Source: Candidatus Latescibacterota bacterium | GTDB lineage: Bacteria; Latescibacterota; UBA2968; UBA8231 | DNA: 64,000 nucleotides | Assembly: GCA_965215195.1 (NCBI GenBank) | Contig: CBDCDC010000002.1 | Location: forward strand, 3,648,001-3,712,000 | Direction: 5' to 3' | Part shown: positions 27,228 through 49,607 of the stretch, piece by piece | How the letters are laid out: each line of letters starts with the position of its first letter | How positions within the stretch are numbered: position 1 is the stretch's first letter | Made by a program: the position numbers and the translations under genes | The notes under the pieces: model-generated | What the model was told of the DNA's origin: nothing | What the model saw: only the letters and a program-made list of their open reading frames with translations | The model's database searches: none

Positions 27228-27289
27228 AAAAGCACCTCCTTTGGGTTTGCTTTTAAGTGTGCGAGTCGCCTGTACATAGGCGCTCTTGG

Positions 27290-30226: not shown

Positions 30227-31459
30227 TCAGCGATCATGCGATTCCTCCGCGTGCTGTAGTATCTGTGCGGATCTGAGGTTGTCGGCGAACGTTTGGTTCG
30301 CGGAGTCCAATTCGACTGCGCGCTCAAAGGCCTCCATAGCCCCTATCCTATTCCCCGCGAGCAGCCTGACGGTGCCGATCCCATTGTGGGCGAAGGCGTA
30401 GGTAGAGTCGGCGCGCAACGCAGCTCGATAGGCTCGGGCCGCCTCTTTGGGTCGATTCTGCTGCAGCAGGAGGTTTCCCAAGTTGTTGTGGGCGGCGGCA
30501 AGTTCGGCATCTCGTGAGATAGCCTGTCGATAGAACTGAATCGCTCTGTCCGTCTCACCCCGTCGCGAGTATAGGCGAGCCAGCGCCTGATAGAGAGCCG
30601 GATCGGTGGGATCGTGGCGGATCGCCTCGCGGTACTTGGCGATGTCCGCGTCGATTGCTCTCAGCATCTCGAACCGACGCAACATCTTTCGCCCGCTCTC
30701 CTTGTGATCCAGCCGCATCAGGCAGTTGGCCAGATCGAAGTGCGCCTTCGCGTGGTACGCATTGAGCTGAATGGCTTTCTCGAGCTGCTGGCGGGCACTC
30801 GCGAAGTCCTTGGCGGCGAGCTGTAGCGCACCCAAGTGCGCCCAAGTGTCTGCATGGGTCGAGTCGATCCGCAGCGTTCTCTGCAAAACCGCTTCGGCCG
30901 CGTCCGGTCGCCCCTGCTTCCCCAGCAGGTAGCTTAGCTGGTTGCGCGCCTCCACATCGTCGGGACGGATTCCCACTGCAATCTCCAGCGATTCGATGGC
31001 TCCGTCGTAGTCGCCTCGCCGTTCCCGTAGCTGCGCCAAAGCCTTGTGGGCGGGCTGATAACCGCTGTCGGCCTCGATCGCGCGCGCCATCAGTTCTTCC
31101 GCCTCTTCGTGCCATCCCGCCGCAGAGCGCACGGAGGCCAAGTTGTAATGGGCGGCCGCGTATTCGGGCTCGAGGGATAGCGCCCGTTGGTACGATGCAG
31201 CGGCTTGGTCGAGACGCCCCTGCCGCGCCAGATTGTTGCCGAGATCGTAGTGGATGACTGGATCCCGTGGATCCAGCTGCGCCGCACGGCGCAGCAGCAG
31301 GATCGCTGCGGCGGATTCACCGCGAGCCGAGTGCTCGAACGCACTGTCGAGGAGGGCTCGTGCGGCTTCTCCCTGCCGAACCGCCTGTTTTTCGGGCCTA
31401 GGCCCTTCGCAGGCGCTCAGTAGGAAGAAGACGAGAACGGCAGGCATGACACTCTTCAA
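30227..31459 (-). CDS. TPR-repeat lipoprotein
   Basis: Lipobox LLSAC; many TPRs (HYDLGN, HYNLA, HNNLGN); start TTG 31459 or ATG 31447. Confidence 0.88.
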   Translation of the reverse strand: MKSVMPAVLVFFLLSACEGPRPEKQAVRQGEAARALLDSAFEHSARGESAAAILLLRRAAQLDPRDPVIHYDLGNNLARQGRLDQAAASYQRALSLEPEYAAAHYNLASVRSAAGWHEEAEELMARAIEADSGYQPAHKALAQLRERRGDYDGAIESLEIAVGIRPDDVEARNQLSYLLGKQGRPDAAEAVLQRTLRIDSTHADTWAHLGALQLAAKDFASARQQLEKAIQLNAYHAKAHFDLANCLMRLDHKESGRKMLRRFEMLRAIDADIAKYREAIRHDPTDPALYQALARLYSRRGETDRAIQFYRQAISRDAELAAAHNNLGNLLLQQNRPKEAARAYRAALRADSTYAFAHNGIGTVRLLAGNRIGAMEAFERAVELDSANQTFADNLRSAQILQHAEESHDR

Positions 31460-33045
31460 TTCCGGGCATCCTCTTCGCCATCCCCCCAATCGGTCAGTAC
31501 GGATCCCAGCGCGTCTTCGCGGACCACGATCTCGTCGGCAAAGTCCACGCGGAGTTGGACGAGCAACGAGTCCATCTTCTGATGCTCGGCGCGCAGACGG
31601 AGGATTACTTCAATGTTTCGCTTCACTGCCTCATAGGGTCGCGCCGGCGTCTGACTCTTTTCGGCGATGCGCAAAACGGAATATCCGCCAGGTACTTCGA
31701 GGGGTCCTAAGAGCGCACCCACTTCCGAGTCGAGGGCGCGAGGCGCGAGGGGCCCCAAGAGCGGGTTGTCTCTGGTGACGAGCCACATTGACCCGCCTCT
31801 CTTCTTCGTCACCTCGCGAATGCTGTGTACCCGCGCCAAGGAGTCGATGGGAGCACCCGCTTCTGCTTGGCCTCGAAGCCGTTGCGCCAGCGTGCGGTCC
31901 GCGACGAGCACCTCATCGACGCGAACCGTTGGACGTGGACCATACAACTCAGGATGTTCGGCGTAGTACGCCCGTTTCTCGGCATCCGAGACCTCGACGC
32001 GGCCGACGACGACCCGCCGGAGGCTGTCGATCATCATTTCTTCCCTCAGCGCATTGACCTGATCGCGCACCGCGGGTTCGCGGTCCATGCCACGACGCTT
32101 GGCCTCCTCCACGACCAGTCGCTCCCGGGCCTTCGTGCGCAACCAGCTCTGAGGATCGCCCTCGGCCGCGGCCAAGTCGACGTCGGATGCCAAGAGCTGG
32201 CCGCTCGCCCAAGTGCAGGGCGGGTCGGCCAGTGGCTCACAGACTAGGCCATGCGCCTTCGCCAAGCTGTCGGCGAAGGCCTCGAAGACGCGCGTCCGCT
32301 CGCGTACGCGGAACTCCTCGAGCACAACATCCCAGCGGCTCGCAATGTCGGCGGGGCGGCGGTCGACGAGGCGAAACACGTGAACCCCGTAGCGGGAGAT
32401 CAGCGGTTCCGGGTAGGTTTGACCAAGCTCCAGAGACAGCACTTGCTCCCTGACCTCCGGGAGCACTTGGGATACAGACATGTAGCTAAAGTAGCCCCCC
32501 AAGCCCCCGGTCTCGTGGTGGATTGAACGTTCGACGGCGAGAACATCTAGCGGCTCTCCCGCAGCGAGAGCCTCGAGGACACTCCACGCATCGGCCTCAC
32601 TCGCCAGCATCACGTGCTGGAGCAGCACCTCTTCGGTGAATCCCGCTTCGATGGCGAAGGTCTGGAGGCCCGACGTGTCGAGCCCCGCGTCGCCAGCGAC
32701 CTCGTCGAACAGGGTGCGCCAGAGGAGTTTGCTCTGTTCCTGCTCAAGAGCAGCTGCGATTCTCGGTGCTGCGGCCAGCTTCCTGCGTTGTCCCTCCAGC
32801 ACCAGAAGCTGTCTGTCTATCATCGCATCGAGTAGCTGACGTCTCGCGTCGAGACTGGCGGGATCTTTGCCGCGATGGGAAGAAGCGAGCAGCGTTGGCG
32901 CCATCTTGCTGTATGCCTCAACATCGATCGTATCTCGGCCAATGATGGCGACGACGATGGGCTCTGGATCGTATTGTTCGGTCTGTTCGCAGGCCAGCAG
33001 TCCCGCGGTTAGCAAGATAACGGCGCGCGATAAGACGCTCATCAT
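31456..33045 (-). CDS. Peptidyl-prolyl isomerase / foldase lipoprotein (two parvulin-like domains, SurA/PrsA-like)
   Basis: Lipobox LLAC; LQHVML..E..A, LA.E.S.H..T...GG, SRYGVHVF, then a second LAR.HS......GG domain; ATGA-coupled to the upstream gene. Confidence 0.82.
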   Translation of the reverse strand: MMSVLSRAVILLTAGLLACEQTEQYDPEPIVVAIIGRDTIDVEAYSKMAPTLLASSHRGKDPASLDARRQLLDAMIDRQLLVLEGQRRKLAAAPRIAAALEQEQSKLLWRTLFDEVAGDAGLDTSGLQTFAIEAGFTEEVLLQHVMLASEADAWSVLEALAAGEPLDVLAVERSIHHETGGLGGYFSYMSVSQVLPEVREQVLSLELGQTYPEPLISRYGVHVFRLVDRRPADIASRWDVVLEEFRVRERTRVFEAFADSLAKAHGLVCEPLADPPCTWASGQLLASDVDLAAAEGDPQSWLRTKARERLVVEEAKRRGMDREPAVRDQVNALREEMMIDSLRRVVVGRVEVSDAEKRAYYAEHPELYGPRPTVRVDEVLVADRTLAQRLRGQAEAGAPIDSLARVHSIREVTKKRGGSMWLVTRDNPLLGPLAPRALDSEVGALLGPLEVPGGYSVLRIAEKSQTPARPYEAVKRNIEVILRLRAEHQKMDSLLVQLRVDFADEIVVREDALGSVLTDWGDGEEDARN

Positions 33046-35720
33046 TGACCAGTTCCGAGACCCGCAAACACGTCCACGAAGATCATCGTATTCGTGTCGG
33101 CATGTTCTCCGCGAACGCTGCGTCGCGTCCACCGCATGCCGATGTTCGCGGTCAGCTCGTAGCCCAGATACGCCGCCTGATTGGAAAACTGCGAGGCCAG
33201 CGTTAGGCGACTGAAGTCGTCTTGGTAGTCGACGGCACCACCCTCAGGGCGGCTCTTCAGGTTATTGAAAAGCTCGTACTCGGTGCCAAGACCGAGAGTC
33301 AGCTTCGGAGAGATGCGATAGCTGACGAGGAAGAAGAAGAGTTCCGCAAGATCGCGCGTGTGGCGCTCGCGTGGGTTGGTCGGCGTACGGGAAGAGAACA
33401 CCTGCTTCCACTGAGGCCACAGGAGCACAGTCGGTGTTGCCCAGAATTGACGATCGGCCCGGTTGATCAGGCCCAAGAACCGCTCGTCCTGCGTTCCCTG
33501 CGCCGCATCCCCCTGCTGATTGTAGGCGTCGTACTTGAGCTTCGTCTGCGTCGTGACGAACGGATTCCAGTCAACCTGAAGGTAGAGGGTGTTGATGAAG
33601 GTATCCTGCGCGATCAATGGATCGCTAAAGTCCTGCAGCGCACCGGCAGAGAAGGCCGGCTGCACCCATTGGATGAGATGGTCGGGGATGTCGTCCTTGA
33701 CTTTGCGGACGAACTCCATTAGCTGGATCGACAGACTGCGCTGTGGATACTCCTTCTTCAGCGTCAGCAGACCGTATGTGGAGACCGCCCGGCGGTCGCT
33801 GGAGTGCTGTTCCATCTGCAAGCGCCCCAACATGAGGCGGCTTTTCGGCATCAGTTCGACACCAGCGTAGAAGTTGCATCCTTTGCTGTCCCGCTTGTAC
33901 GGGTAGTCCGGTTCGGTGTCGTTCTCGAAACGGTCGATGATTGTATTGTTGTTCATGTCCGTGCCGAAGAGGAATTCGGGCGAATCGACGTGGTAGCGGA
34001 AGAACGGCTCGCTGTAGTCGGGCTGGTTGTTCTGGTTCTGATTGAAGTCGGAGATAAAGTCTTGGTTCTCGTCGAGGCCCGGAAACACCTCCCGATCGGG
34101 GAATTGATTCTGGTTTGGAAACAGGGCACTCAGATTCGCGCTGCGGCGGATCCAGTCCGGGAAGCGATCTTGGTCGTCGTTATCATCGACGAGTTCGTAG
34201 AGGTAATTCTCCTCGTTCTCGTAATCGATGAAGCCCTGCGAGTCCGGGATGAACATAGACGTCGAGTACCCCGGCTCAACGCTGAAGAGCTCCCCGTAGC
34301 CGAAGAAGGGGTACGCGATCTGCGATGCCGTGGCGTAATAAGCCTCGGACTCGTCGTGAGCGAGGGCTTGGTTGCTGCGAATGGTCTGGTTGGGGAACCG
34401 TCGGTTGCGCCGATTGCTCACGTACTCAGATCGGAGATTGAAGCCCCCCACGTCGCTGATCGCCAAGTTTACCCCTCGCAGCTCGTTGCTCGAAGGGATC
34501 CCGTACTGAAAGCGGATGAATCGCTGGTTGGAGGCATCGGTGACGTTGCCCTGCGCTTGGGCGACGGGCAGGAAGGCGGGTTCCAGCGTCGCGTTGGTCT
34601 GCAGGTTCGAGGCGACTTCTACGAGGTAGTCGTTGGCTACGACCAGCCCCACCTCAATTCGCTCGATCTCGCGGAAATCGGTGATCTCCTCATCGGGACC
34701 CGGCCGAAAATCCGTCTCAATGTTATACGTCAGGGTGACCGTATTGGAGCCACTGGCCTCTAGCAGGCCTTCGCGCGCGACCCCCCCTTCGATGATCGGG
34801 TCGATCTCGGGATGCTCGACGCCGTCGATGAAGATCTGCTCGCGGAGCAGCAGGGCGCCGCCGACGCCATCCTCGGGTGAGTCGTCTGACAGTCGCACGA
34901 TGAGCCGCTGGACATTGCCCGCATTCAGGCGACCGCCGAGGACGCCACGCAGCGAATTTTCGTCGAGGGAGAGGGCCGAGTTCTGGTGAAAGGTCGTCAT
35001 ATACCTTCCACCCAATGTCGCGAAATCGCCGACGGCCACGCTTCCGTTCAGGCCAACGAGTTGCGTGAAGGTCGTTTGTCGCGCCGGTCCTTGGTCGACG
35101 GCCACGGCCACGCGCCCAGGCGAATCGGCCCGCGCCGCTAGGACGCTTACTTGGTATTTATCGGTCTGGAAGTCCCACTGCAAACCGTCGAAAAGGGGCT
35201 TGGAGAAGGTGAGCGGCGTCATCGTAGTGCGAATGCCCTCGCCGATGGTCAGAGCGGTGTGGAACTGCCCCTTGGCCCCGGAGACCACGATGAGGCGATT
35301 GAACCACTGGCTGAAGTTTGGATCTTTCCAGATTCCGCTACCGAAATCCCGCGGATACTCATTCGTGAAGTTGTAGATGTTCCAGCCCTTGGTGAAGTAA
35401 TTGCCGTAGAGGTCGTAGTAGCGGTCGCCTTCGAGCTCGGTTCGCACATAGCGCCGGTACTGGTCCCGAGCATAGTTGGTGTAAGCACTCCCCTGCCAGC
35501 CGTATAGGGAGTAGAGTGCCTGGGGCAGATACCACTTCCGCAACGTTGGAACCAGTGTCTCGGGACTGATTCGGGCCCCTTCCGTGATGTAGGGATTGAA
35601 CAGACCAACTTCGACAGCTCGGCCTGGCGTCACTTGCAACAGCAGGACGGCTATAATGGAGCCGACCCAGTTGCGCTTCACGTCTAGCCCTTCCGTTATC
35701 TTACCGCCACGTATTGTCAT
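33042..35720 (-). CDS. Large exported protein, probable outer-membrane beta-barrel with Ca-binding-like loops
   Basis: Signal peptide (alternative GTG start at 35681); alternating amphipathic strands, ending MIFVDVFAGLGTGQ; D/N-rich motifs DDNDDQDRFPD, DENQDFISD, DMNNNTIID. Confidence 0.6.
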   Translation of the reverse strand: MTIRGGKITEGLDVKRNWVGSIIAVLLLQVTPGRAVEVGLFNPYITEGARISPETLVPTLRKWYLPQALYSLYGWQGSAYTNYARDQYRRYVRTELEGDRYYDLYGNYFTKGWNIYNFTNEYPRDFGSGIWKDPNFSQWFNRLIVVSGAKGQFHTALTIGEGIRTTMTPLTFSKPLFDGLQWDFQTDKYQVSVLAARADSPGRVAVAVDQGPARQTTFTQLVGLNGSVAVGDFATLGGRYMTTFHQNSALSLDENSLRGVLGGRLNAGNVQRLIVRLSDDSPEDGVGGALLLREQIFIDGVEHPEIDPIIEGGVAREGLLEASGSNTVTLTYNIETDFRPGPDEEITDFREIERIEVGLVVANDYLVEVASNLQTNATLEPAFLPVAQAQGNVTDASNQRFIRFQYGIPSSNELRGVNLAISDVGGFNLRSEYVSNRRNRRFPNQTIRSNQALAHDESEAYYATASQIAYPFFGYGELFSVEPGYSTSMFIPDSQGFIDYENEENYLYELVDDNDDQDRFPDWIRRSANLSALFPNQNQFPDREVFPGLDENQDFISDFNQNQNNQPDYSEPFFRYHVDSPEFLFGTDMNNNTIIDRFENDTEPDYPYKRDSKGCNFYAGVELMPKSRLMLGRLQMEQHSSDRRAVSTYGLLTLKKEYPQRSLSIQLMEFVRKVKDDIPDHLIQWVQPAFSAGALQDFSDPLIAQDTFINTLYLQVDWNPFVTTQTKLKYDAYNQQGDAAQGTQDERFLGLINRADRQFWATPTVLLWPQWKQVFSSRTPTNPRERHTRDLAELFFFLVSYRISPKLTLGLGTEYELFNNLKSRPEGGAVDYQDDFSRLTLASQFSNQAAYLGYELTANIGMRWTRRSVRGEHADTNTMIFVDVFAGLGTGQ

Positions 35721-35733
35721 TGGATCAACTTTC

Positions 35734-38085
35734 CTAGTAGGCTACGCTCACCAGCAGGGTTTCGGCCTCCGGCCCTGCGTCTGCCGGCACCTCTACGCGG
35801 CAGACGTAGACCCCGGGTAGCGCAGGCCGCTCGTTCACCATTCCATCCCACACTAGCTCCTGCGTCTCCCCTCGCCGACCGGAGACGACCCGGAGCAGGT
35901 GCCCTGCCAAGTTGTAGAGCCGTAGCTCAGCAGCGACTCTGGTGCGAAACAGATCAAAGGTAATGCGCAAATTGTCGTTGATTGCGTCGCCGTTTGGCGT
36001 GATGACGCGGCTCGATACGACGAGATTGCGGATAGTACCTCCTGTGGCTACATCCGGTAGGAAGACGAAGAGGGCCTCTCGGTCGGTGCGATCGGACTCG
36101 CCATCGCCGTCGTCGTCGACGTCCGGTGGCCTCACCTCTTGCCGATTATCCGGTTGTGCCGAGTTGGCCACAGATGCGAGGAAGCGGGTGGGATTGCTCA
36201 GCGGCCGCGCCGTGAACAGCACCTCTACCGAGTCCCGCAGCACGCGTCCGGGCATAGCGACGACGAGCGTGTCCGCGGTGGACTCGACCGATCCCGTGCG
36301 CTCTTCCCCATCAATGCGCAGCGACACATTCCGCACTTGTCCTGGCACGGGCAGAATCACGCGATCGAAGCCTCGATCCCGCGCCGTAAAGATCGGTTGC
36401 AGCACGTAGCGAAAGTCCTGCCACTCACCGGCGATCGCCTCCCGTGGATAGATCGCGGCCTCAACGCCTTTTTGCACCAGTGCTTCGTCGAAGTGAAGAG
36501 TCACTGACTTGAGTACCGGAGTGATTTGGGGATCGTCGGTCTCCAGACTCACCCGCATTCGCAATAGCTGTCTAGGGGTGGGCGACCGAAAGGGCTGGCC
36601 CGACGAAAGGTGCGGCTCACTCCAACCACTCCAGTCCGCACCTTCCTTGGGCACTTCGACGATCTCACCCCGCACCACTTTGGGCAGCTTGTTGTACTGG
36701 GCCTCGGTGATCGGCTCACCGTTTTTCTTAAAGAAAAACTGCTCCACATCGAGTTCGTTGCCCGTTCGAGTCTGCACGGTGATTCGGGTCCCCGGCGGGG
36801 TGTCGGCATCCCACGAGATCCCGGTGATGCTCTTGGTCCCCCCGAGGTCGATGAAGTCGGATGTCAAGGCCGCTTGTGCCGGGTAGCCAGCGGAATAGAT
36901 GAATACTTCCAGCATGATATAGCCAACCCTTCTGTCCTCGACGTCCATGTGGTTCCAGAACAAATAGCGGCCGACCCGATCTTGTAGCTGGTGGTCGAAG
37001 ACATAGCGTCCCGGTGCTTGGCTGTTGTCGACCAGCGAAACGCGCGTGTAGTCAAAGGGGCTGCGGAATGGATCGTCCCGGGCAATCGGCGTTCCGTCCG
37101 TCATCTCCAGATTATAGCCGGTGTTGGTACCGCCGATTCCGAACGTCGTTCGCCCTAGATGATTGGGAGGCCACTGGTAGAACACGATCCGGCTGACGTG
37201 GAAGAGGGCACCCAGATCCCACTCGAACCACATCCCCCCATCCTGCCAGAAGCGATTGAGGTTATTTGCAATCAAGGGCCATGCATTGTCCACGGTTCCA
37301 TCGCGCAGCTCCTCCACTTTTGGGCGTCCCGAGCGGATCGTCCCCCCCCGCTCAAAGGTCGTCAACGCGATATTATCGCCGATCGCGGTTACCTCGATCT
37401 CGGCCAGCGCCGCGTTTTCCCCGACCTCGTGGGGAAGGAAGCGGATGTAGTGTACGGGCATGAAGTCCAGCGACTTGCCCGTCACCAGATTCTCGCCGGT
37501 CGCAATGTCCCCGAAATCTTCAATCGACAAGGGAATGACGATCTCGACCAACTCGTTGGGCTCGGTGGTCGTGAAAACGCGCTGGAACCGCCAGACATCT
37601 GCGGATGAAGACACCGTGGAACCTTCGCTGACAAAAACCGAGAAATCCCGGAAGGGGCGTACGCCGAGGGTATCCGGAAAGACCAAGCGGATCTCCTTCA
37701 TCAGGACGAGGCGGCCCAAGTCGATGTGTATCCACGCATTGTCGGGATCGGCACCGGCGTCGGGCTGCCACCACGTCTCGCGGTCGTTATCGGCGAGCAA
37801 CCGGGCGTCGCGGTTGTTCGACTGTGCCGTCAGCCCGCCGAAGACCTCGCCACTTTTGCGGGTGGGATGCGAAAACAGGGACATGTCATCCATCGGATCG
37901 GTGTCCGTTCCGTACCACCCCAGCTCAACCTGCCCGTCTGGCCGCAACTGAATGGCCCCAATCGGGCTCGTCCACTCCTGCCAATCGCTGCGACGATCGA
38001 AGCGAAATTCATCGGCCGCGGCGCGACTGGACAGCAGCCATGCGGCCATGGCGATGATGCACAAGCTCGTTTTTGCCATAGTCAT
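35734..38085 (-). CDS. Secreted multidomain protein with discoidin-like regions and a FlgD/CHU_C-like C-terminal tail
   Basis: Signal peptide; WIHIDLG, WFEWDLG, TRTG...WSGWS.P...SP.PR; tail ITPNGDAIND...LYNLAG..LR...WDG...PGVY. Confidence 0.75.
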   Translation of the reverse strand: MTMAKTSLCIIAMAAWLLSSRAAADEFRFDRRSDWQEWTSPIGAIQLRPDGQVELGWYGTDTDPMDDMSLFSHPTRKSGEVFGGLTAQSNNRDARLLADNDRETWWQPDAGADPDNAWIHIDLGRLVLMKEIRLVFPDTLGVRPFRDFSVFVSEGSTVSSSADVWRFQRVFTTTEPNELVEIVIPLSIEDFGDIATGENLVTGKSLDFMPVHYIRFLPHEVGENAALAEIEVTAIGDNIALTTFERGGTIRSGRPKVEELRDGTVDNAWPLIANNLNRFWQDGGMWFEWDLGALFHVSRIVFYQWPPNHLGRTTFGIGGTNTGYNLEMTDGTPIARDDPFRSPFDYTRVSLVDNSQAPGRYVFDHQLQDRVGRYLFWNHMDVEDRRVGYIMLEVFIYSAGYPAQAALTSDFIDLGGTKSITGISWDADTPPGTRITVQTRTGNELDVEQFFFKKNGEPITEAQYNKLPKVVRGEIVEVPKEGADWSGWSEPHLSSGQPFRSPTPRQLLRMRVSLETDDPQITPVLKSVTLHFDEALVQKGVEAAIYPREAIAGEWQDFRYVLQPIFTARDRGFDRVILPVPGQVRNVSLRIDGEERTGSVESTADTLVVAMPGRVLRDSVEVLFTARPLSNPTRFLASVANSAQPDNRQEVRPPDVDDDGDGESDRTDREALFVFLPDVATGGTIRNLVVSSRVITPNGDAINDNLRITFDLFRTRVAAELRLYNLAGHLLRVVSGRRGETQELVWDGMVNERPALPGVYVCRVEVPADAGPEAETLLVSVAY

Positions 38086-38094
38086 CGCAAACTC

Positions 38095-40164: not shown

Positions 40165-40177
40165 AAATACTTCCTTG

Positions 40178-42046: not shown

Positions 42047-42047
42047 G

Positions 42048-42770
42048 TCAGCGCACCGAAACGGTAGCGGGTGGCCGGTATCCCTTGAAGACGTCGCGTT
42101 GGAACCCGTAGGTCAGATCTACGGTCTCCACCGGCTCATCAGCGTAGTTGAAACGAACGGCAACGTCGTTGACGTGGACGGCCAACTCGGCCACGTCCGG
42201 GGGCATGGGTGGAAATACGATAAAGCCTTCGTACTCTTGGCCGCTGAAGATCATCTCGTCGGCATACATGTGGAGACGCAGCAGATCTTCACGCTCGCGC
42301 ATGCGCACATAGTAGTTCCCGGCCCAAGCCAACGCATACGCTCGGTAGTACTCACTGATTTCGAGGAATGTCAGGGGCTTGTAGAAACGCTCGCTGGCGG
42401 ATCGCAACTCAATTCTAGACGGATCGATCTTGACCTTCGGATACGCATAGTTTTTGATCCGCAGAAGGAATACGGTAAATCGCTGGGGCGTAAATGACTC
42501 TCCTGGGGGGGTCCAATCGCCGAATGTAAAGGGGTTAGTGGAGCGTGCTCCGTTGGCCGACTTTGTGGCGAAACTGCGGTTGAGCTCCGCGTCCGTCATG
42601 GGTCGCAGCGCGATATCGAGCCTCTCGAAGACGTAGGCCACCGATCCATCGTCGTGGACCACCATGTGTTCGCCTTGCTCGGACTTGGGCTTGGGCTGGA
42701 GAGGCCCCGGGAAGTAGCGCCCACAGCCGGACACAATCAGAATCAGCAGGCAGCTACAAATCGCTCTCAA
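42048..42770 (-). CDS. Lipoprotein of unknown function
   Basis: Lipobox IVSGC; beta-rich Ig-like pattern (FLLRIKN...GQEYEGFIVF). Confidence 0.75.
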   Translation of the reverse strand: MRAICSCLLILIVSGCGRYFPGPLQPKPKSEQGEHMVVHDDGSVAYVFERLDIALRPMTDAELNRSFATKSANGARSTNPFTFGDWTPPGESFTPQRFTVFLLRIKNYAYPKVKIDPSRIELRSASERFYKPLTFLEISEYYRAYALAWAGNYYVRMREREDLLRLHMYADEMIFSGQEYEGFIVFPPMPPDVAELAVHVNDVAVRFNYADEPVETVDLTYGFQRDVFKGYRPPATVSVR

Positions 42771-42804
42771 AACGATCTCTCCGCGCAGTGCAGTTTAGAT
42801 AAAA

Positions 42805-42833
42805 TAAGGAGGGAGGACCGTCCTCCCTCCTTA
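42805..42833. terminator. Perfect hairpin between the first and second genes of the operon
   Basis: TAAGGAGGGAGGAC-C-GTCCTCCCTCCTTA. Confidence 0.7.
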
Positions 42834-42865
42834 GATGGAACAAGAGCTGTGGAGCGTTTCCCTAC

Positions 42866-43759
42866 TTACCGCATCAGGGCTTTCACCGCACCCCAGCTAC
42901 TCCCCTCGACGGCTGTGGCGAACTCACCGGTGCTTAGCAAGGTAAATTCGGAGGAGAATTCCGAGCTATGGGCACCGCCGTTTTGGATGTGCGTCGTGAT
43001 TTGGTGCGTTCGGCCTCCACTGTCCGCCTCATTGAGGCTCAGTGACATGCCGATCGTCTGGCCTGCTTCAAATATCCAGCGGACGCTTGCGTCGCGGCCA
43101 TCTGGCTGGTACGGATCGTAGGCCTCCATGCGAACTTCGTAGTTCACCGTCACGTCAGCGGCCAAGTGCCCGGCACCCGCTGGCGAGACCACGACGGCCC
43201 CCTCAACAGCACCCGACTCGGGACCCCACTGCATCTCCGCAGGCTGGTTCCAGCGCAGGAAGGACACGAGGGGGTAACCTCCGGGACGGGCGTAGTGGAA
43301 GGTCCACTGCTGGTGTCCGGTGCGGAGGGCGTCAGCCGCCTCGTTCCACACGCCGTGGTCGGGATCCAGAATGAGCTCGAGATCGTCGTCATGCCAACCA
43401 TCGTTTGGCTCGGTGACATCGGCGTTCAGCGTGTCGTCGACGACGCGCGTGAATACGTAGAGCCGATTGTCCGGCTCCGGTGTCCAGCCGACGTGGTGAG
43501 CGATGTCGAGGTCGCTGCGCGCTGGAAACTCACCCTCGCCGATCACGTCGCACAGTTGGTCGCGACCGATGATGAAGTCCGGATCGTACCAGGCCCAGTC
43601 GCTGTCGTCGCCATCGGGGTTCATGGATTCTGGGTTTGGCACCTGCAGGGCAAAATAGCCGATACCGTTGCAGTTTTCGTATGCCGCTACCGGAGCCGCG
43701 AAACCTGCCAGCAGCACAGTGCCGAGGACTAGTGTGCTGAGAACTGCTTTCTTGTGCAT
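42866..43759 (-). CDS. Secreted CBM9/DOMON-like protein with ATAVEGSSWGAVKALMR tail
   Basis: GAGGAG RBS, signal peptide, VGW...NRLYVF..VVDD, DDLELILDPDHG; paralog of 26331-27227. Confidence 0.75.
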   Translation of the reverse strand: MHKKAVLSTLVLGTVLLAGFAAPVAAYENCNGIGYFALQVPNPESMNPDGDDSDWAWYDPDFIIGRDQLCDVIGEGEFPARSDLDIAHHVGWTPEPDNRLYVFTRVVDDTLNADVTEPNDGWHDDDLELILDPDHGVWNEAADALRTGHQQWTFHYARPGGYPLVSFLRWNQPAEMQWGPESGAVEGAVVVSPAGAGHLAADVTVNYEVRMEAYDPYQPDGRDASVRWIFEAGQTIGMSLSLNEADSGGRTHQITTHIQNGGAHSSEFSSEFTLLSTGEFATAVEGSSWGAVKALMR

Positions 43760-43884
43760 GAGATCTCCTCTCGTTCATGTCTTCACTTCACCCTTTGGCC
43801 GAAGGAAGACGGTAGATTGGCGCGGAAAAATGAACATCTACGCCGCTTGTGAATCAACCTATTATACAGGTTAGCGAAGGCAGT

Positions 43885-43913
43885 AATCTATGACGCGAGA
43901 GCAAAAATTTCAA
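43885..43913 (-). promoter_or_regulatory. Sigma70-type promoter of the leftward operon
   Basis: Minus strand TTGAAA-N17-TAGATT in an AT-rich divergent intergenic region; TGACT-N4-AGTCA palindrome just upstream at 43923-43936. Confidence 0.55.
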
Positions 43914-44177
43914 GACCTTTTTTGACTGGTGAGTCAGTAAGGTGCAAGGCGTACCTAAAAACAATAACATCTTTTATAAACAACTATTTGTCGTTTCTTC
44001 TATTGGAAGCCACTGGAGGTGAAAGGGCCTATCGCATCGCGGCTCCGCAGTCGCAATTGATACGACCAAATTTAACCTCTACACGCGCTTGACTGCGTCT
44101 TTGAAAGGTGAGTAACTTGAATCTCCGCTTGGATTCGGAGTATCGACGCTCCACGGATTAACTTATGATGTACTGTG

Positions 44178-45890
44178 ATGCACAGCAGCGATCCAAATGC
44201 ACAGACAAAGACGAGTCGATATCGTCGATGGATCCGTCGGGTGCTGCGAGTTGCTTTGGTGGCAGCACCCGTTTTGTCGGGCTGCAGCGACGATAGAAAA
44301 TCGGCTCTTACCCTCCCTCGATTCAGCGAGGTCGCGGCCGAGTCCGGGATCGAATTCCGCCACTTCAATGGTGCTGCCGGGTCCTACTACTATCCCGAAA
44401 CCCATGGCTCGGGTGCGGCATTTGCCGACTTCAACGGCGACGGCTTTCCCGATCTCTACGTCGTGAACAGCGCTGCTATCCACGGCGTACTCACCGCTCA
44501 TCTGCCTGCCAATGCCCTATTCGCGAATCAGACCGACGGGACCTTCGTCGATAGAGCAGCGGAGGCAGGGGTCGCCGACACGAGCTTTGGCATGGGGGTC
44601 GGCGTTGGGGACATCGACAACGACGGCCACGCCGATCTCTACGTCGCGAACTGGGGTGCCAATCGGCTCTACCGAAACTTGGGCCATGGCCGCTTTGCGG
44701 ACGTGACCGAACGGTCGGGAACCGGCGATCTGCGGGTATCGACGAGCACGGCCTTCGCCGACATCGATCTCGACAGTGATTTGGATCTGTATGTCGCCAA
44801 CGACGTGCGGATTGTCGGAGACGATCTCCCAGAGTGCTACCGCGGACTGATTCGGATCTACTGTGGCCCCGGTGCCTACCCCGGCGATTCCGGGTCTCTG
44901 TTCCGCAACGACGGCGACCTCCGTTTCACAGATATCACCGACTCAATGGGTGTCTGGAGCGAAGAAGGTCGGCAGCTAGGCGTGGCCTTCGCCGACTACG
45001 ACGATGACGGCGACCCCGATCTCTATGTCGCCAATGACCACGAGCCAAACTTCCTGTTCCGCAACGACGGGTCCCGATTCGCCGAGGTCGGTGTCTCCGC
45101 TGGCGTCGCCACGAGCCCCGATGGTGCCGCGGAAGCGGGCATGGGCACCGATTGGTCCGACTACGATCGCGACGGTCGCCTCGACCTAGGCGTGTGCAAT
45201 TTCCAGTGGGAGCCCTGCCGGCTGCTGCACAATGCCGGGGCGGGTCAATTCGCAGACCACACCGCGCAGAGCGGACTGGGAGGGCCGACCTATCAAACCC
45301 TCACCTTCGGGGCAGATTTCATCGATGTCGACAACGACGGATACCCCGATCTGTTCCTCGCCAACGGCCACGTTGAGCCCAACATCGAGATTCTCGACAG
45401 CGCCGGCCCGCGCTATGCGCAGCACGACCAGCTCTTCCTGAACAATCGCGACGGCACATTCACCGACGTGACCGCGGCGAGCGGTCTGACGGCGTTCTCC
45501 GCGGGCGTGGGGCGAGGCTCAGCCGCGGCCGACTACGACAACGACGGCGATGTCGACCTGTTCGTGTCAAACAACAACCAACGCCCGCACCTTCTCAGAA
45601 ACGACGGTGGAAACCGAGCCAACTGGATTTCAGTCGAGGTACAAGGTACGCGGAGCAATCGCAGTGGAATCGGCGCGCGCGTCACCGTGTTCTCCGCTGA
45701 TCTACAGCAGATGGCCGAGGTACGGGGGGGTAGCAGCTACCTGTCGCACAACGATCTGCGACTGCACTTCGGCCTTGGTCGCAGGACAACGGTGGACCGC
45801 ATCTTAGTTCGTTGGCCATCGGGTGGATTGCAGACTGTGGGCCCCGTGCCGGCAAGGCGCTTTGTGCGAATCGTAGAAGGCGAGCTGTGA
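44178..45890 (+). CDS. CRTAC1 family protein (FG-GAP repeats plus ASPIC/UnbV), lipoprotein
   Basis: Repeated DxNxDGxPDLYV motifs; C-terminal SNRSGIGARV...GGSSYLS.NDLRLHFGLG...VRWPSG; lipobox LSGC; start uncertain. Confidence 0.92.
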   Translation: MHSSDPNAQTKTSRYRRWIRRVLRVALVAAPVLSGCSDDRKSALTLPRFSEVAAESGIEFRHFNGAAGSYYYPETHGSGAAFADFNGDGFPDLYVVNSAAIHGVLTAHLPANALFANQTDGTFVDRAAEAGVADTSFGMGVGVGDIDNDGHADLYVANWGANRLYRNLGHGRFADVTERSGTGDLRVSTSTAFADIDLDSDLDLYVANDVRIVGDDLPECYRGLIRIYCGPGAYPGDSGSLFRNDGDLRFTDITDSMGVWSEEGRQLGVAFADYDDDGDPDLYVANDHEPNFLFRNDGSRFAEVGVSAGVATSPDGAAEAGMGTDWSDYDRDGRLDLGVCNFQWEPCRLLHNAGAGQFADHTAQSGLGGPTYQTLTFGADFIDVDNDGYPDLFLANGHVEPNIEILDSAGPRYAQHDQLFLNNRDGTFTDVTAASGLTAFSAGVGRGSAAADYDNDGDVDLFVSNNNQRPHLLRNDGGNRANWISVEVQGTRSNRSGIGARVTVFSADLQQMAEVRGGSSYLSHNDLRLHFGLGRRTTVDRILVRWPSGGLQTVGPVPARRFVRIVEGEL

Positions 45891-47431
45891 GAGCACGTGC
45901 GTGGTTCCTTGCCTTAATGGCTCTCGTCGGGTGCGAAAGCCAACGCCCTGCTGCGGACGCGCCGCCCACAGCGGACGAGTTGGGGCGGTTGCGGCTAACG
46001 CATGAAAAGCGACTGCGCGAACGCCCCGGCGATCTCGAGACCCGGGTGTTGCTTGCCCGCGTACTGCTCGACTTGGGTCACCTCGATCAATCAATGGATC
46101 AGTTCCAAATGGTTCTTCGCTCGGATAGTCTGCACGTGGGGGCCCTGATGGGTCTCAGCGAGGTTCTAGCTCGGATCCGCGATCACGCGATGGCTCTCTC
46201 CTTGGCGAAGCGGGCTGTCGCGGCCAAGCGCAATGCGGAGACTTTGGAGAGGCTAGCGGTGGCGTGGCTGGAGGTCGGACAGCTCGCGAACGCCCAGTTT
46301 GCGCTCGCCGAAGCGATCGCGCTGGATCCGGCCCGCCCGACGCTTCACAAGTTGATGGGGGTGCTACTGGCCGCTCAAGGTGATGTAGCGGCAGCGCAGA
46401 CTTCGCTGGAGCGAGCGGTGGAACTGGATCCCACATCGCACGAGGCCAGCTTCGCATTGGGCGTTCTCCAGTGCGAGCGCCTACGTAGCTGTGCGGAAGG
46501 TTTGCACCTCCTCCAGCGAGCCATCGCCTTGGCACCGGACAGCGTCCGATACGAGGTAGCGGCAGGCCGCGCCCTCCTGCAGGTAGGACGGACCCGCGAG
46601 GCCCTACAGGCATTCTCCACAGCGGTCGATCTCGACCCCTCTTCGGTGGAGGCGCACGTCGGTCTGGGCGTGTCCCGAGCCAAGCTAAAAATGTACGTCG
46701 AAGCGGCCACCGCTCTTGAGAGGGCACTCGAACTCGACCCGGTGCATCCCGATGTCCGTCTTCAGTTGGCTTCCGCGTACCGCCATCTGGGTCGTACCCG
46801 GGACGCCGAAGAGCAGGACGCCGCCCATCGGAGAATCGAACCGCACGTGGCTAAAATCGAAAGCCTGCGTGCGCTGGCCCAGCGAGGCCGCAATCCCAAT
46901 GCACACTTCGACCTCGCTCGTCTCTACGCCCGCCTCGGTCACGACGCGGGAACCGTAAAACACCTGCGCGACGGCTTGTCCCTCCAGCCGGACAACGCCC
47001 GAGCTTGGCAGAACCTCGGCAATGCCCACGTCCGCTTGGGTCGTCCCGGCGAGGCGATCTCGGCGTACCGCCAAGCCCTGAACCTCGAGCCGGACTATGG
47101 CTTGGCGTGGTACAACTTAGGTACGGCCTACGCTACCAGAGGCTACATCAACCTAAGTCGCGAGGCGTACGAACGGGCTTTGGAGTTGTCCGAGCATTCG
47201 GCGGATGTTTTCATCGCGCTGGGGAACCTCGAATTGCAACAAGGCGATGCCCATGCAGCGGCCGAGCGCTACGAACAGGCGCTGGCCCAAGATCCCGATC
47301 TGCCATCGGCACAGCGGGGTCTCGTGCTCGCGTACCGGCAGGCCGGTGACTGGGCAGCGGCAGCTCAAGCCATCGCAACATTCAGGAACAAGGCGTCTCC
47401 GCCCTCTCCGCCACCGATGAAGGGCCCCTAG
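45887..47431 (+). CDS. TPR-repeat lipoprotein
   Basis: GTGA-coupled start; lipobox LVGC; many TPRs. Confidence 0.88.
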   Translation: MRARAWFLALMALVGCESQRPAADAPPTADELGRLRLTHEKRLRERPGDLETRVLLARVLLDLGHLDQSMDQFQMVLRSDSLHVGALMGLSEVLARIRDHAMALSLAKRAVAAKRNAETLERLAVAWLEVGQLANAQFALAEAIALDPARPTLHKLMGVLLAAQGDVAAAQTSLERAVELDPTSHEASFALGVLQCERLRSCAEGLHLLQRAIALAPDSVRYEVAAGRALLQVGRTREALQAFSTAVDLDPSSVEAHVGLGVSRAKLKMYVEAATALERALELDPVHPDVRLQLASAYRHLGRTRDAEEQDAAHRRIEPHVAKIESLRALAQRGRNPNAHFDLARLYARLGHDAGTVKHLRDGLSLQPDNARAWQNLGNAHVRLGRPGEAISAYRQALNLEPDYGLAWYNLGTAYATRGYINLSREAYERALELSEHSADVFIALGNLELQQGDAHAAAERYEQALAQDPDLPSAQRGLVLAYRQAGDWAAAAQAIATFRNKASPPSPPPMKGP

Positions 47432-47436
47432 ATCAA

Positions 47437-48798
47437 ATGATGACTCAACCCCGCATCCTTCCCCTCCTAGTCCCCCTGATTCTGGTGCTGTCGGCGAGTT
47501 CCTCAGGCGCAGCCACATCGCTTGTCGTCGACTACGTCGCCATCCCTCAGATCGACTACGAACCGGCGATCTACTACGATGATGGAGACCCCCTGCCGCA
47601 TCTGGCTTTCGAGCGCATCGACTGGACGCGCATCGTCGCCAAGCGGCACAGACGCGTGGTATTAGAGTCCAACTATGTGCGCGTGGAGGTGCTGCCGGAG
47701 ATGGGACGGGTGTACTCCCTTATCGACAAGCGGACCGGGCACGACGCGCTGTGGAAGAACGACATCGTGCGCCCCGGCGGGGCGAACAACCCCACTGGCT
47801 GGTGGCTCTGGATCGGCGGGATCGAGTATACGCTTCCAGGCTACGAGCACGGCACGACCTTCGCGCTGCCTTGGACGTGGAAAATTTTGGAAGATTGCCC
47901 AGAACGGGTATCTATGTCGATGGCAACCACGGAGCCGCTGACGGGCCTGACCCAGAGAATCAGGCTGACGGTCCATCAAGGCTCGGCCGCGATGGAGGCC
48001 CAGATCCGCCTCCACAATCCAGGAGCCGATACCGTTCAGTTCGCCCACTGGATCAATCCCATGTGGGCCCCTGGAGGCGAGAACGAGCTGACCGACAACA
48101 CCGAGTTCATCATCCCCACCGCGCGCATCCTGATCGCTGACCGCTGGCAGAAAAACCTAGGACCGAGTCCACAGGTCTGGAGCGCGAGCCCGCTGCGCTA
48201 CCTCCGCGGGTGGAAGGCCGGGGATATCATGGCCGACGGATTGACGGCCGGCTATTACAGCGCCTACTCCCACGACGCCGAAGAGGGCGTGGTCCGAGTC
48301 TTCGATCCCGTCCTCAACCCCGGTGTCGACGTATGGACCTACGGCTTCCATCCGACGGGGATTCCCATGGGATCTGGCCAGCCCAACAAGGGCTATGTCG
48401 AGATGTGGGGTGGCACGTCGGTGCTTTTTCCCGATGAGACACGGCCCCTCCCACCCGGAGGCTCGCTTGCGTGGACAGAGTGGATGTATAGCTACCGGGA
48501 AACGAAGGGGATGAGTGCGGCATCGCAGATCGGCGCGATTCGCGGCAGCCTAGACGACGGGTTGCTGGACATCGCCCTTTCGCCCGCTCTCGAGGTGCCC
48601 AATGTCGCCATCGAAGTGTCGGTGGGTGGTGAAGTGACCGTTCGAGACTCGGCCTCGCTGACTCCGGCGAGGGTCCTGCACCGCTCCTACCCGATTGAGG
48701 CCGCGGAACCACCGGACGATCTCGCCGTCGAGGTGCGACAAGGGGCCCTTCAGCTCCTGTGGTTTCCGATTACAGGGGAGAATCGGCGTCTCAAATAA
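47437..48798 (+). CDS. Secreted DUF5107-like (galactose mutarotase-like fold) protein
   Basis: VLE.NY..V.VLPE.GRVYS..DK.TG...L..N..V.P.......W..GGIEY....HG; YVEMWGG. Confidence 0.7.
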   Translation: MMTQPRILPLLVPLILVLSASSSGAATSLVVDYVAIPQIDYEPAIYYDDGDPLPHLAFERIDWTRIVAKRHRRVVLESNYVRVEVLPEMGRVYSLIDKRTGHDALWKNDIVRPGGANNPTGWWLWIGGIEYTLPGYEHGTTFALPWTWKILEDCPERVSMSMATTEPLTGLTQRIRLTVHQGSAAMEAQIRLHNPGADTVQFAHWINPMWAPGGENELTDNTEFIIPTARILIADRWQKNLGPSPQVWSASPLRYLRGWKAGDIMADGLTAGYYSAYSHDAEEGVVRVFDPVLNPGVDVWTYGFHPTGIPMGSGQPNKGYVEMWGGTSVLFPDETRPLPPGGSLAWTEWMYSYRETKGMSAASQIGAIRGSLDDGLLDIALSPALEVPNVAIEVSVGGEVTVRDSASLTPARVLHRSYPIEAAEPPDDLAVEVRQGALQLLWFPITGENRRLK

Positions 48799-48957: not shown

Positions 48958-49212
48958 ATGGCAACAGCAACGCTGACAAGCAAGGGGCAAGTCACAATTC
49001 CCAAAACCGTTCGCGAGGCTCTTCAACTCCGTGAAGGCGATAAAGTCGATTTTATGCTTACGGAAAATGGTGAAGCGCTCCTAACACCTATAGTTAAAAA
49101 AATAAAAGTAGATGAAATTTTCGGGAAGTTATATAAATCTAGCCGAAAGCCTGTTTCGGTTCCCCAAATGAAGTCTGAAATTAAGCAAAAAATGAAGGCA
49201 CGTTTTAAGTGA
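48958..49212 (+). CDS. AbrB/MazE/SpoVT-family antitoxin
   Basis: ATLTSKGQVTIPK.VRE.L.L..GD; AT-rich. Confidence 0.92.
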   Translation: MATATLTSKGQVTIPKTVREALQLREGDKVDFMLTENGEALLTPIVKKIKVDEIFGKLYKSSRKPVSVPQMKSEIKQKMKARFK

Positions 49213-49607
49213 AAGCATTAGACACAAATGTGCTTGTTCGCTTTCTCGTACGGGATGACAAAAAACAAGCAGAAATTGTGTACAGGCTTTTTAAGCGAGC
49301 AGAAGGCAAAAACGACTCCTTTTTTGTTCCTTTGCTCGTCGTGCTCGAAACCATCTGGGTATTGGAATCTGCATATGAAATTCCACGAGAAGAAATCCGC
49401 ACGTCTCTTCAGGAACTTCTTCTCATGCCTATTTTGATATTTGAGGCCCAATCTGCTCTGCAAAGTACTCTCTCATCTGCTCAGACAAACAAAATAGATC
49501 TTGCGGATTTGTTAATTGCACACTCAGCAAAATTTTCAAATTGTGATAGTGTTCTCACTTTTGATAAAAAAGCATCTAAATTCACGCTGTTTGAGCAGTT
49601 AAGGTAG
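49209..49607 (+). CDS. vapC: VapC PIN-domain toxin
   Basis: LDTNVLVRFL..DD..Q, VLET.WVL, DLADLLI, TFD; GTGA overlap. Confidence 0.9.
   Translation: MKALDTNVLVRFLVRDDKKQAEIVYRLFKRAEGKNDSFFVPLLVVLETIWVLESAYEIPREEIRTSLQELLLMPILIFEAQSALQSTLSSAQTNKIDLADLLIAHSAKFSNCDSVLTFDKKASKFTLFEQLR

Follow-up and report, generated by a model that had tools for sequence, protein, structure and literature searches.

A conserved multi-copy gene cassette encoding a very large predicted outer-membrane barrel in Latescibacterota

Organisation of the locus

The window analysed here is a stretch of 64,000 nucleotides (nt) from the genome of a Candidatus Latescibacterota bacterium (contig CBDCDC010000002.1), and its subject is a cassette of envelope genes spread over positions 30227..48798, where eight open reading frames (ORFs) on the minus strand face three on the plus strand. 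This gene set is a real, conserved multi-copy unit, which includes OMP892, a predicted outer-membrane beta-barrel of very large size. The ORFs and their domains had been described in a sequence-only reading of this DNA, and all eleven, eight leftward and three rightward, were present at the same coordinates, with their domains supported by Pfam and NCBIfam searches.

On the minus strand, the first gene of the cassette encodes CBM297 (42866..43759; 297 aa), a secreted protein resembling carbohydrate-binding modules of family 9 (CBM9). A terminator-like hairpin on the same strand (42805..42833) separates it from the gene for LP240 (42048..42770; 240 aa), a lipoprotein of no known family. These are followed by three secreted paralogues, P622 (40178..42046; 622 aa), P689 (38095..40164; 689 aa) and P783 (35734..38085; 783 aa), the first two sharing an architecture of discoidin and Ig-like domains ending in a TPNGD-type C-terminal domain (CTD), and the third having an extra discoidin-like domain at its N-terminus. 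The leftward arm continues with OMP892 itself (33042..35720; 892 aa), the double-parvulin peptidyl-prolyl isomerase (PPIase) lipoprotein PPI558 (31456..33132 as a 558-aa ORF, or 31456..33045 from its likely start) and the TPR lipoprotein TPR420 (30227..31489; 420 aa). Across the divergent intergenic region (43760..44174), the plus strand encodes FGGAP571 (44175..45890; 571 aa), a CRTAC1-like lipoprotein combining an FG-GAP/VCBS beta-propeller with a UnbV_ASPIC domain, then TPR539 (45812..47431; 539 aa), a second TPR lipoprotein that is mostly paired with the FG-GAP gene, and finally a 453-aa DUF5107 protein (47437..48798), which is a neighbour outside the conserved cassette.

The leftward genes had been taken for a tightly coupled eight-gene operon. 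The intergenic gaps of 1-13 nt agree with this, as does the overlap between the stop codon of OMP892 and the probable start codon of PPI558 (ATGA at 33045-33042), the ATG at 33045 being the likely true start of the latter gene. The coupling is interrupted behind the first gene, where a gap of 95 nt contains the hairpin, with its 13-bp stem. In the divergent region, the sequence at 43913..43885 resembles a promoter of the leftward genes by consensus match only, and such sites were no more numerous there than in shuffled sequence, hence no promoter is claimed. By visual inspection and a crude regular expression, signal peptides and lipoboxes were recognisable on essentially all the products, as had been proposed.

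Conservation and copy number

The conservation of the cassette was assessed in a scan of one genome per GTDB species, which detected relatives of OMP892 at a minimum of 575 stretches. Eighty of these loci were kept and compared through tblastn and phmmer, using the window proteins as queries, and membership was counted at the 52 of them with full 10-kb flanks. All 80 originate from Latescibacterota-type metagenome-assembled genomes (MAGs), with up to five lying on one chromosome (OZ242361.1). By label, 65 are assigned to Latescibacter- taxa and 15 to Gemmatimonad- taxa, and some of the latter (e.g. L005) encode a barrel 93% identical to that of Latescibacterota chromosomes, so these labels are probably outdated or artefacts of submission. 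The 15 loci, labelled as Gemmatimonadetes, Gemmatimonadota or Gemmatimonadaceae, are L005, L016, L019, L024, L027, L032, L033, L037, L043, L047, L050, L054, L057, L067 and L071.

Alongside the barrel, LP240 and P622 were each present at 50 of the 52 full-flank loci, P689 at 49, CBM297 at 47, a TPR protein of either kind at 46, the PPIase at 42, P783 at 41 and the FG-GAP protein at 31. The order CBM297-LP240-P622-P689-P783-OMP892 is kept in ten orthologous loci, the cassette proteins of which are 78-96% identical to those of the window, and also in numerous paralogous loci, where identity is 25-56%. Between locus types, membership is kept while gene order is shuffled: in one variant P689 stands at the far end, behind TPR-FGGAP-FGGAP-TPR-PPIase, and in another the barrel gene faces CBM297-P689-LP240-PPIase-FGGAP-TPR. 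It is highly improbable that these envelope genes simply happen to lie side by side without being functionally linked, given that eight or nine families recur at 41-50 of the 52 loci, with identities of 25-50%, on either strand and in a variety of gene orders.

The expectation of the sequence-only reading that the genes would co-occur in many genomes, with paralogous copies within them, is therefore borne out by these counts, and its view of the two arms is corrected in part. The FG-GAP/ASPIC, TPR and PPIase genes are indeed members, variable in position, and the divergent layout is only one arrangement among several, with the FG-GAP gene variable in position and often duplicated in the related loci. 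The DUF5107 gene, which had been counted in the facing arm, was found at none of the 52 full-flank loci and at one of the 80 kept (L013), although its expected place in the ten orthologues is outside the fetched flank. A downstream GFO/IDH/MocA oxidoreductase gene was found at 11 of the 52, all orthologues except for one distant match. Both were rejected as members of the system on these synteny counts.

The members diverge between paralogous loci at different rates. Median identity was 49% for both OMP892 and the FG-GAP protein, and 46% for LP240; CBM297 and the three P proteins reached 32-35%, with the PPIase and TPR proteins at 25-30%. On the basis of these medians, the barrel and LP240 can be read as the constant core of the cassette, and the CBM- and discoidin-bearing proteins as its diversifying parts.

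A barrel family without a described member

OMP892 has no match in Pfam or NCBIfam. An AlphaFold2 model built on 32 homologues (predicted local distance difference test score, pLDDT, 70.2; predicted template modelling score, pTM, 0.70) consists almost entirely of long beta strands from approximately residue 143 to the C-terminus, with 26 strands of at least eight residues assigned by DSSP between residues 143 and 888, a figure that is not a count of strands in the barrel wall. The model places an inserted beta domain at approximately residues 272-390, a position that is uncertain. The stretch at approximately 513-600, which is modelled with low confidence, coincides with invariant Asp/Asn motifs in the alignment of homologues, and this loop resembles those that bind calcium, suggesting a similar role. 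The N-terminal 130 residues are also modelled with low confidence, and are conserved.

When this model was compared with the PDB using Foldseek, the matches were exclusively large outer-membrane barrels, with template modelling (TM) scores of 0.13-0.34. The top matches were Deinococcus SlpA complexes (7zgx, E 1.4e-8; 8agd; 8ae1; TM 0.21-0.23), and others included MtrB (6r2q, E 1e-7), LptD, the FimD and PapC ushers (TM approximately 0.2) and TonB-dependent transporters (TM 0.14-0.27). The model is clear as to the fold class, that of a large outer-membrane barrel, and as a prediction this upholds the earlier assignment of the 892-aa protein; no family match accompanies it. In Pfam and NCBIfam, OMP892 has no match to PorP_SprF at E <= 0.01, none to a TonB plug or TonB_dep_Rec barrel, and no usher, Omp85/POTRA or TpsB signature; in Pfam it has no match to SlpA_C (PF21620) at E <= 0.01, nor to SLH. 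Its profile found nothing meaningful among PDB sequences, and in a protein atlas it falls solely among its own unnamed clusters, the nearest named entry being DUF6029 (0.89), which is a lead only.

The family to which it belongs is nevertheless large. Homologues form 602 clusters in a set of 5.8 billion proteins, and the 120 best listed of these are unnamed or called 'hypothetical protein', with several MAGs supplying two different clusters. Across 1.84 billion cluster representatives, a profile search identified 959 clusters (at 50% identity) with E <= 1e-3, of which 311 had E <= 1e-30. OMP892 thus represents a substantial barrel family that lacks any described member. In one type of related locus, the barrel gene has another large gene within a few kb on its downstream side: these genes encode Omp85-family proteins of 943-948 aa (L056:15707-18538, minus strand; L072:12975-15821, plus strand), scoring 78.5 and 66.2 bits on the NCBIfam model Omp85_fam, under its cut-off of 200.

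The closest relationship to a known barrel was detected at the edge of this family. Weak matches to SlpA_C were found in 5 of 22 distant full-length relatives, the best scoring 30.2 bits against a cut-off of 35, with none in the other 17. Furthermore, P0161 is a distant relative of OMP892 (profile E 1.5e-105), and precomputed PF21620 annotations are attached to 41 of the 120 listed relatives of P0161. SlpA-type barrels are thus the nearest known kin of OMP892, possibly through a distant superfamily link. In this SlpA_C-annotated branch, at least 13 clusters (P0299, P0309, P0327, P0334, P0338, P0347, P0348, P0351, P0355, P0358, P0366, P0370 and P0388) come from contigs of 5,870,491 bp, presumably one and the same contig, in which case the branch would be still more expanded per genome.

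This kinship raises the question of whether the cassette builds an envelope or adhesion structure, in which an SlpA-like scaffold carries adhesin-like Ig and discoidin proteins as a surface coat, or for attachment to particles or a host, rather than for nutrition, with the multiple copies providing antigenic or adhesive variety. The S-layer-associated SlpA complexes at the head of the fold matches and the SlpA_C matches of distant relatives speak for such a role, as do the resemblance of the P622 model to pilins and adhesins, and the hairpin, which makes CBM297 look like an abundant structural subunit (both described below). Yet OMP892 itself lacks an SlpA_C match, its TM-scores to SlpA are only about 0.2, neither an SLH domain nor a coiled-coil stalk was detected with Pfam, and the carbohydrate-uptake genes in the neighbourhood suit a nutritional role better. 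In SlpA it is an N-terminal SLH domain that tethers the protein to the cell wall, and we know of no SlpA encoded in a cassette of this kind. A structural or adhesive role is quite unlikely.

The lipoprotein LP240 and the accessory proteins

LP240 carries the lipobox IVSGC, with an invariant Cys16 that precedes G-R-Y-F-P, and a crude regular expression found a lipobox-like site in 55 of 59 homologues. It has no significant match in Pfam, NCBIfam or the PDB, whether by sequence or by profile, so that neither it nor the barrel is named by any entry of these three databases. In the protein atlas LP240 likewise finds only its own kind, with LssY_C (0.82) and DUF4352 (0.79) as the nearest named entries, again leads only. 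The pairing of a large barrel with a small conserved lipoprotein is reminiscent of LptD-LptE and of MtrB with MtrA/C, and both barrels are among the fold matches of OMP892; however, there is no sequence relationship to either, and a location of LP240 inside the barrel found no support. A complex prediction for residues 135-892 of OMP892 with mature LP240, run without controls, scored 0.00 twice against a mark of 0.32, a result that speaks neither for nor against binding.

The remaining lipoproteins belong to known superfamilies. PPI558, with the lipobox LLAC in the window protein, has two parvulin stretches, matching Rotamase_2 (67.7 bits, residues 381-504) and Rotamase (38.0 bits, residues 179-256), with a further match to Rotamase_3; on the equivalog models for SurA, PrsA and EpsD it scored under the cut-off in every case. 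TPR420 and TPR539 both match TPR models in Pfam and NCBIfam. FGGAP571 matches FG-GAP_3 in eight stretches (162.6 bits) and UnbV_ASPIC at residues 498-563 (77.8 bits), and the 453-aa protein beyond it matches DUF5107 with 60.6 bits.

Surface proteins with a cassette-specific C-terminal domain

P622, P689 and P783 form a group with F5/8 type C (discoidin) matches near the N-terminus, notably in P622 and P783, and with CHU_C and/or FlgD_ig matches at the C-terminus of all three. Their paralogy, proposed from the outset, is evident from the full-length alignment of P622 with P689 (29% identity, E 2e-56), and from that of P783, which aligns to the others from its own residue 281 and so has one extra N-terminal domain. 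Their N-termini are hydrophobic, with Ala-X-Ala-type sites, and the regular expression detected a hydrophobic run in 46/60, 62/66 and 43/59 members of the P622, P689 and P783 families respectively. The AlphaFold2 model of P622 (54 sequences; pLDDT 86.7, pTM 0.77) is an all-beta string of beta-sandwich domains. Foldseek relates these to the N-terminal, discoidin/CBM32-like domain of galactose oxidase, and to arrays of Ig or macroglobulin domains, with pilins and adhesins (BcpA, CfaB, PrgB and an ice-binding adhesin) also among the fold relatives. The P622 profile matched discoidin domains of the neuropilin b1 type in the PDB, and FlgD over the C-terminal domain.

The CTDs were characterised from an alignment of the last 110 residues of 150 members of the P families, for which the consensus is V-x-TPNGDGxND ... 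IYDLxGR ... WDGRD ... PPGxY ... VAY. The motif [TS]PN[GN]D is present in 59/60 members of the P622 family, 51/66 of the P689 family and 52/59 of the P783 family. CHU_C (PF13585) matched all 150 CTDs at E <= 0.01, with a best E-value of 1.2e-11, and FlgD_ig matched 136; the TPNGD tails therefore do belong, as had been suggested, to the CHU_C superfamily of CTDs that serve secretion by the type IX system (T9SS). Over their whole length, the window proteins score 27.0 (P689, equal to the cut-off), 23.0 and 17.3 bits on CHU_C, rising to 31.9 for the isolated CTD of P689. In NCBIfam, the type-B model TIGR04131 matched 115 of the 150, and the type-A model TIGR04183 matched 113. Public names for 80 relatives of P689 are mostly absent or 'hypothetical', with two called 'T9SS type A sorting domain-containing protein' and one 'gliding motility-associated C-terminal domain-containing protein'.

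A hidden Markov model (HMM) of the CTD was then run on every ORF of the loci and window, approximately 1.7 Mb in total. Beyond the P families it found just six proteins, which carry NYPNPFN instead of TPNGD, and all six score above the type-A cut-off (24.9-36.0 bits, against 23). Hence there are two separate CTD classes in the sequence scanned, one on T9SS cargo of the usual type-A kind and the other, with TPNGD, restricted to cassette proteins. Within the window, a 334-aa NHL-repeat protein (62951-63955, minus strand) has a type-A CTD (LYPNPFN; TIGR04183, 34.3 bits against the cut-off of 23), and is an indirect sign that the organism has a T9SS.

The sequence-only reading had proposed a dedicated module in which the barrel and foldase export or anchor the tailed proteins. 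In its fullest form, export by the barrel would make the cassette a self-contained, T9SS-independent machine: the barrel would be a translocon, resembling an usher or two-partner pore, through which the P proteins and possibly CBM297 pass, dedicated chaperones would be supplied by the PPIase and TPR lipoproteins, and the TPNGD domain and the SWG tail of CBM297 would act as recognition signals. The barrel is large enough, with the ushers, LptD and MtrB among its nearest folds; a chaperone-type PPIase gene overlaps its stop codon, and TPR lipoproteins accompany it at most loci; the P-family CTD differs from the general type-A CTD, occurring in cassette proteins only; and the T9SS of these genomes is itself only deduced. 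Set against this, OMP892 lacks an usher, Omp85/POTRA or TpsB signature and reaches TM-scores of only about 0.2 with ushers, the CTD has a fold of the T9SS CTD superfamily and type-A cargo is present in the same genomes, and neither an energy source nor a plug domain is evident. Because canonical type-A CTD proteins occur in these genomes, including in the window, the general T9SS is the more economical export route, and the barrel is more likely an anchor or partner; that it exports the P proteins itself is unlikely.

The closest precedent for such a partnership is the type-B T9SS cargo of Bacteroidota that is encoded beside a PorP/SprF protein, such as SprB with SprF or PG1035 with PorP. As in the cassette, these are Sec-exported surface proteins with a CHU_C-type CTD of approximately 90 aa, the CTD is distinct from the general type-A CTD of the genome, and the cargo genes adjoin that of an outer-membrane barrel. 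However, PorP/SprF proteins are approximately 300-400 aa long, whereas the cassette barrel, with its 892 aa and no PorP_SprF match, belongs to a separate, undescribed family. The cassette further differs in having two or three paralogous cargo proteins per barrel, in adding LP240, a tailed CBM9-like protein, and PPIase, TPR and FG-GAP proteins, and in CTDs that score equally well on type-A models. The PorP/SprF-type partner anchors or shuttles its cargo, according to two studies (PMC9143113; PMC12618676). No literature on T9SSs in Latescibacterota was found.

CBM297, its C-terminal tail and the hairpin

The CBM9-like identity of CBM297 has two sources. The protein itself matches CBM9_1 (PF06452) over residues 97-156 only, with 23.5 bits against a cut-off of 23.4, and the family profile matches PDB entries that include a xylanase CBM9 module from Thermotoga (1i82, E 1.8e-4) as well as 7nwn (E 2.4e-4). 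In 55 homologues, which are otherwise only about 30-32% identical, the extreme C-terminus is TAVE-xx-SWG-x-(I/V)K-xx-F, often preceded by a Gly/Thr-rich linker and lacking a hydrophobic anchor. The TAVE..SWG.IK tail is a candidate for a general docking or sorting signal, for which we know of no named equivalent.

The same tail was also seen outside the CBM297 family. In the form TAV(E/A)..SW(G/A).(I/L)K, it ends a distant CBM9-like paralogue in the window (26331-27332, minus strand; CBM9_1, E 0.009), and it is likewise at the end of an unrelated 249-aa protein of no family (11625-12374, minus strand) and of PD40/TolB-type propeller proteins inside some cassettes (L014, L023, L024 and L036). 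The tail-bearing ORFs of these loci are L014:439-1380, L014:1426-2397, L023:2590-3114, L024:455-1411 and L036:2684-3598.

Directly 3' of CBM297, the hairpin (42833..42805) consists of a perfect 13-bp stem and a 3-nt loop, and is followed by TTATTTTAT, a T-rich run. Its stem sequence occurs at a single site in the window, which rules out a dispersed repeat. The stem is kept in 11 of 11 orthologous sequences, among which the loop and flanks vary and one compensatory change replaces an A-U pair with G-C. Paralogous locus types have hairpins of quite different sequence in the same place, at -25 to -41 kcal/mol. The median energy of the best hairpin downstream of CBM297 was -32.1 kcal/mol, with 52/56 at -24 or below; in like-for-like comparisons the medians were -17.3 to -25.1 behind other cassette genes, and -20.7 in random windows (45/150 at -24 or below). 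As the hairpin stands directly behind the first gene, CBM297 would be made in excess of the other subunits, through partial termination or protection of the 3' end, and is probably the most abundant product of the cassette.

Genomic context and comparison with polysaccharide utilisation loci

Genes for handling sugars lie near the cassette in the window: sugar-type ATP-binding cassette (ABC) importers, a DUF6785/DUF6784 membrane protein, a sulfatase, GFO/IDH/MocA oxidoreductases and HAD phosphatases. Among the 80 related loci, DUF6785/6784 relatives were found at 16, ABC permeases at 16-17 and sulfatases at 5, and one PL4 lyase was present among 22 hand-picked neighbouring ORFs. In a divergent locus type, a DUF6785 gene sits between those for the barrel and P622. 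This context is no more than suggestive. The window protein with DUF6785 and DUF6784 (55553-57451, plus strand) is encoded directly behind an ABC sugar-importer operon of permeases and a binding protein; relatives of it are at L040:12515-14455, L014:15808-17808, L050:3848-5785 and L080:3271-5109, and no mention of DUF6785 was found in the literature searched. A 776-aa ORF on the minus strand (23214-25544) combines SBP_bac_1 with BPD_transp_1, either as a fusion or as a read-through of two genes, and has relatives at 17 of the 80 loci.

The arrangement recalls the polysaccharide utilisation loci (PULs) of Bacteroidota, in which SusC and SusD are encoded with surface glycan-binding proteins. Both are present in multiple copies per genome, combine a conserved barrel core with divergent CBM- or Ig-like surface proteins, and neighbour sugar importers, sulfatases and lyases, so that the cassette may be linked with carbohydrates. 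Unlike a PUL, however, the cassette has neither a match to a TonB-dependent plug or barrel nor a SusD among the 11 proteins of the locus (Pfam, NCBIfam), its surface proteins carry CTDs rather than lipid anchors, and its core contains no enzyme or regulator. Since the barrel lacks both a TonB plug and any likeness to PorP/SprF, the comparisons with SusCD and PorP drawn in the sequence-only reading hold as analogies only.

The analogy could be extended to make the barrel an uptake channel, a TonB-independent counterpart of SusC that imports oligosaccharides, with LP240 as its lid or plug and with the P proteins and CBM297 feeding it. The PUL-like pattern of multiple copies with divergent binding subunits would fit, as would the DUF6785 and ABC importer genes that adjoin or sit within some cassettes, and the invariant Asp/Asn loop and inserted domain could gate the pore. 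There would also be a place for such a channel, since only non-specific porins were assumed for the outer membrane of this phylum in earlier genome analysis (PMC4454575). On the other hand, no TonB box or plug was detected in Pfam or NCBIfam, a passive pore of such size would need tight gating, and contact of LP240 with the barrel found no support. This explanation, which overlaps the preferred one set out below and differs only in the role of the barrel, is an improbable one.

Proposed function

On these observations, the cassette can be grouped with systems that pair dedicated T9SS-type cargo with an outer-membrane partner encoded alongside, here in several PUL-like copies. Its best explanation, with a probability of roughly 40%, is a PUL-like surface glycan-capture complex, the binding proteins of which would leave the cell through the T9SS and then dock on the barrel encoded with them, with export, docking and ligand all inferred. 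Firstly, all the products would leave the cytoplasm by the Sec or lipoprotein pathways, as their signal sequences indicate. Secondly, OMP892 and LP240 would form the conserved membrane core, being among the slowest-evolving members alongside the FG-GAP protein. Thirdly, the two or three discoidin/Ig-like paralogues would cross the outer membrane through the general T9SS of the cell, which is probably available given the type-A cargo in the same genomes, and the TPNGD-type CTD would dock them on the co-encoded barrel, in the manner of type-B CTD proteins on PorP/SprF. Fourthly, CBM297, made in excess owing to the hairpin, would be placed at the surface through its TAVE..SWG.IK tail. Periplasmic roles in folding, assembly or binding may fall to the PPIase, to the TPR lipoproteins and to the FG-GAP/ASPIC lipoprotein. 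The divergence of the binding subunits among the copies in a genome could give each copy a separate ligand specificity, and captured or degraded sugars would pass to inner-membrane ABC importers, often encoded nearby. For Bacteroidota, the binding of type-B CTD proteins to their cognate PorP/SprF, as presented in PMC9143113 and PMC12618676, is the precedent for docking of a CTD on a barrel, and PMC11205867 places the T9SS in the superphylum of Fibrobacteres, Chlorobi and Bacteroidetes (FCB).

Several observations weigh against this explanation. The presence of a T9SS is deduced solely from the type-A CTD proteins, and docking of the CTD on the barrel is an argument from analogy, as none of the 11 proteins is a homologue of PorP/SprF, a family to which the barrel bears no relation. 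Of the 150 P-family CTDs, nearly equal numbers fit the two models (113 type A, 115 type B), and the window P proteins score only 19.2-24.1 bits on TIGR04131, under its cut-off of 35; the TPNGD motif, for its part, is typical of the type-B domains of Bacteroidota. As to glycans, the CBM9 match exceeds its cut-off by 0.1 bits, discoidin domains bind lipids and proteins too, the core cassette contains no glycoside hydrolase or lyase, and sugar-transport neighbours were found at a minority of loci, with no background rate for these sugar-rich genomes. The hairpin may also stabilise the mRNA instead of attenuating transcription.

A more novel reading is a categorically new outer-membrane machine, in which the barrel, served by a lipoprotein, a PPIase and TPR factors of its own, either itself exports and displays the TPNGD- and SWG-tailed proteins, or imports glycans without TonB. 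This is possible, if doubtful; were it true, the cassette would be the Latescibacterota answer to SusCD, equipped with a previously unrecognised C-terminal sorting signal. As the sequence-only reading anticipated, no described system maps onto the cassette gene for gene in Pfam, NCBIfam, the PDB or the literature, and the cassette was not found described in a literature search that covered few subscription journals.

Members of the Latescibacterota are uncultured and widespread, and they degrade polysaccharides, those of algae among them. The cassette is a concrete candidate for the missing step in their handling of substrates at the outer membrane, where a Latescibacteria genome paper assumed non-specific porins (PMC4454575). 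It would also constitute a second example, from outside the Bacteroidota, of a specialised CTD class with a co-encoded barrel, and so bears on how type-B T9SS cargo is sorted. Beyond these, it contributes a short C-terminal tail, conserved and common to secreted proteins that are otherwise unrelated, that may be a sorting or docking signal, and a conserved stem-loop that should set the ratio of subunits.

Other genes near the cassette

Two further genes near the cassette are unrelated to it. A TIR-domain protein (TIR_2, 37.3 bits) is encoded at 7027-7617 and a PIN-domain protein (56.5 bits) at 49209-49607, both on the plus strand, and these may function in defence or as part of a toxin-antitoxin system.

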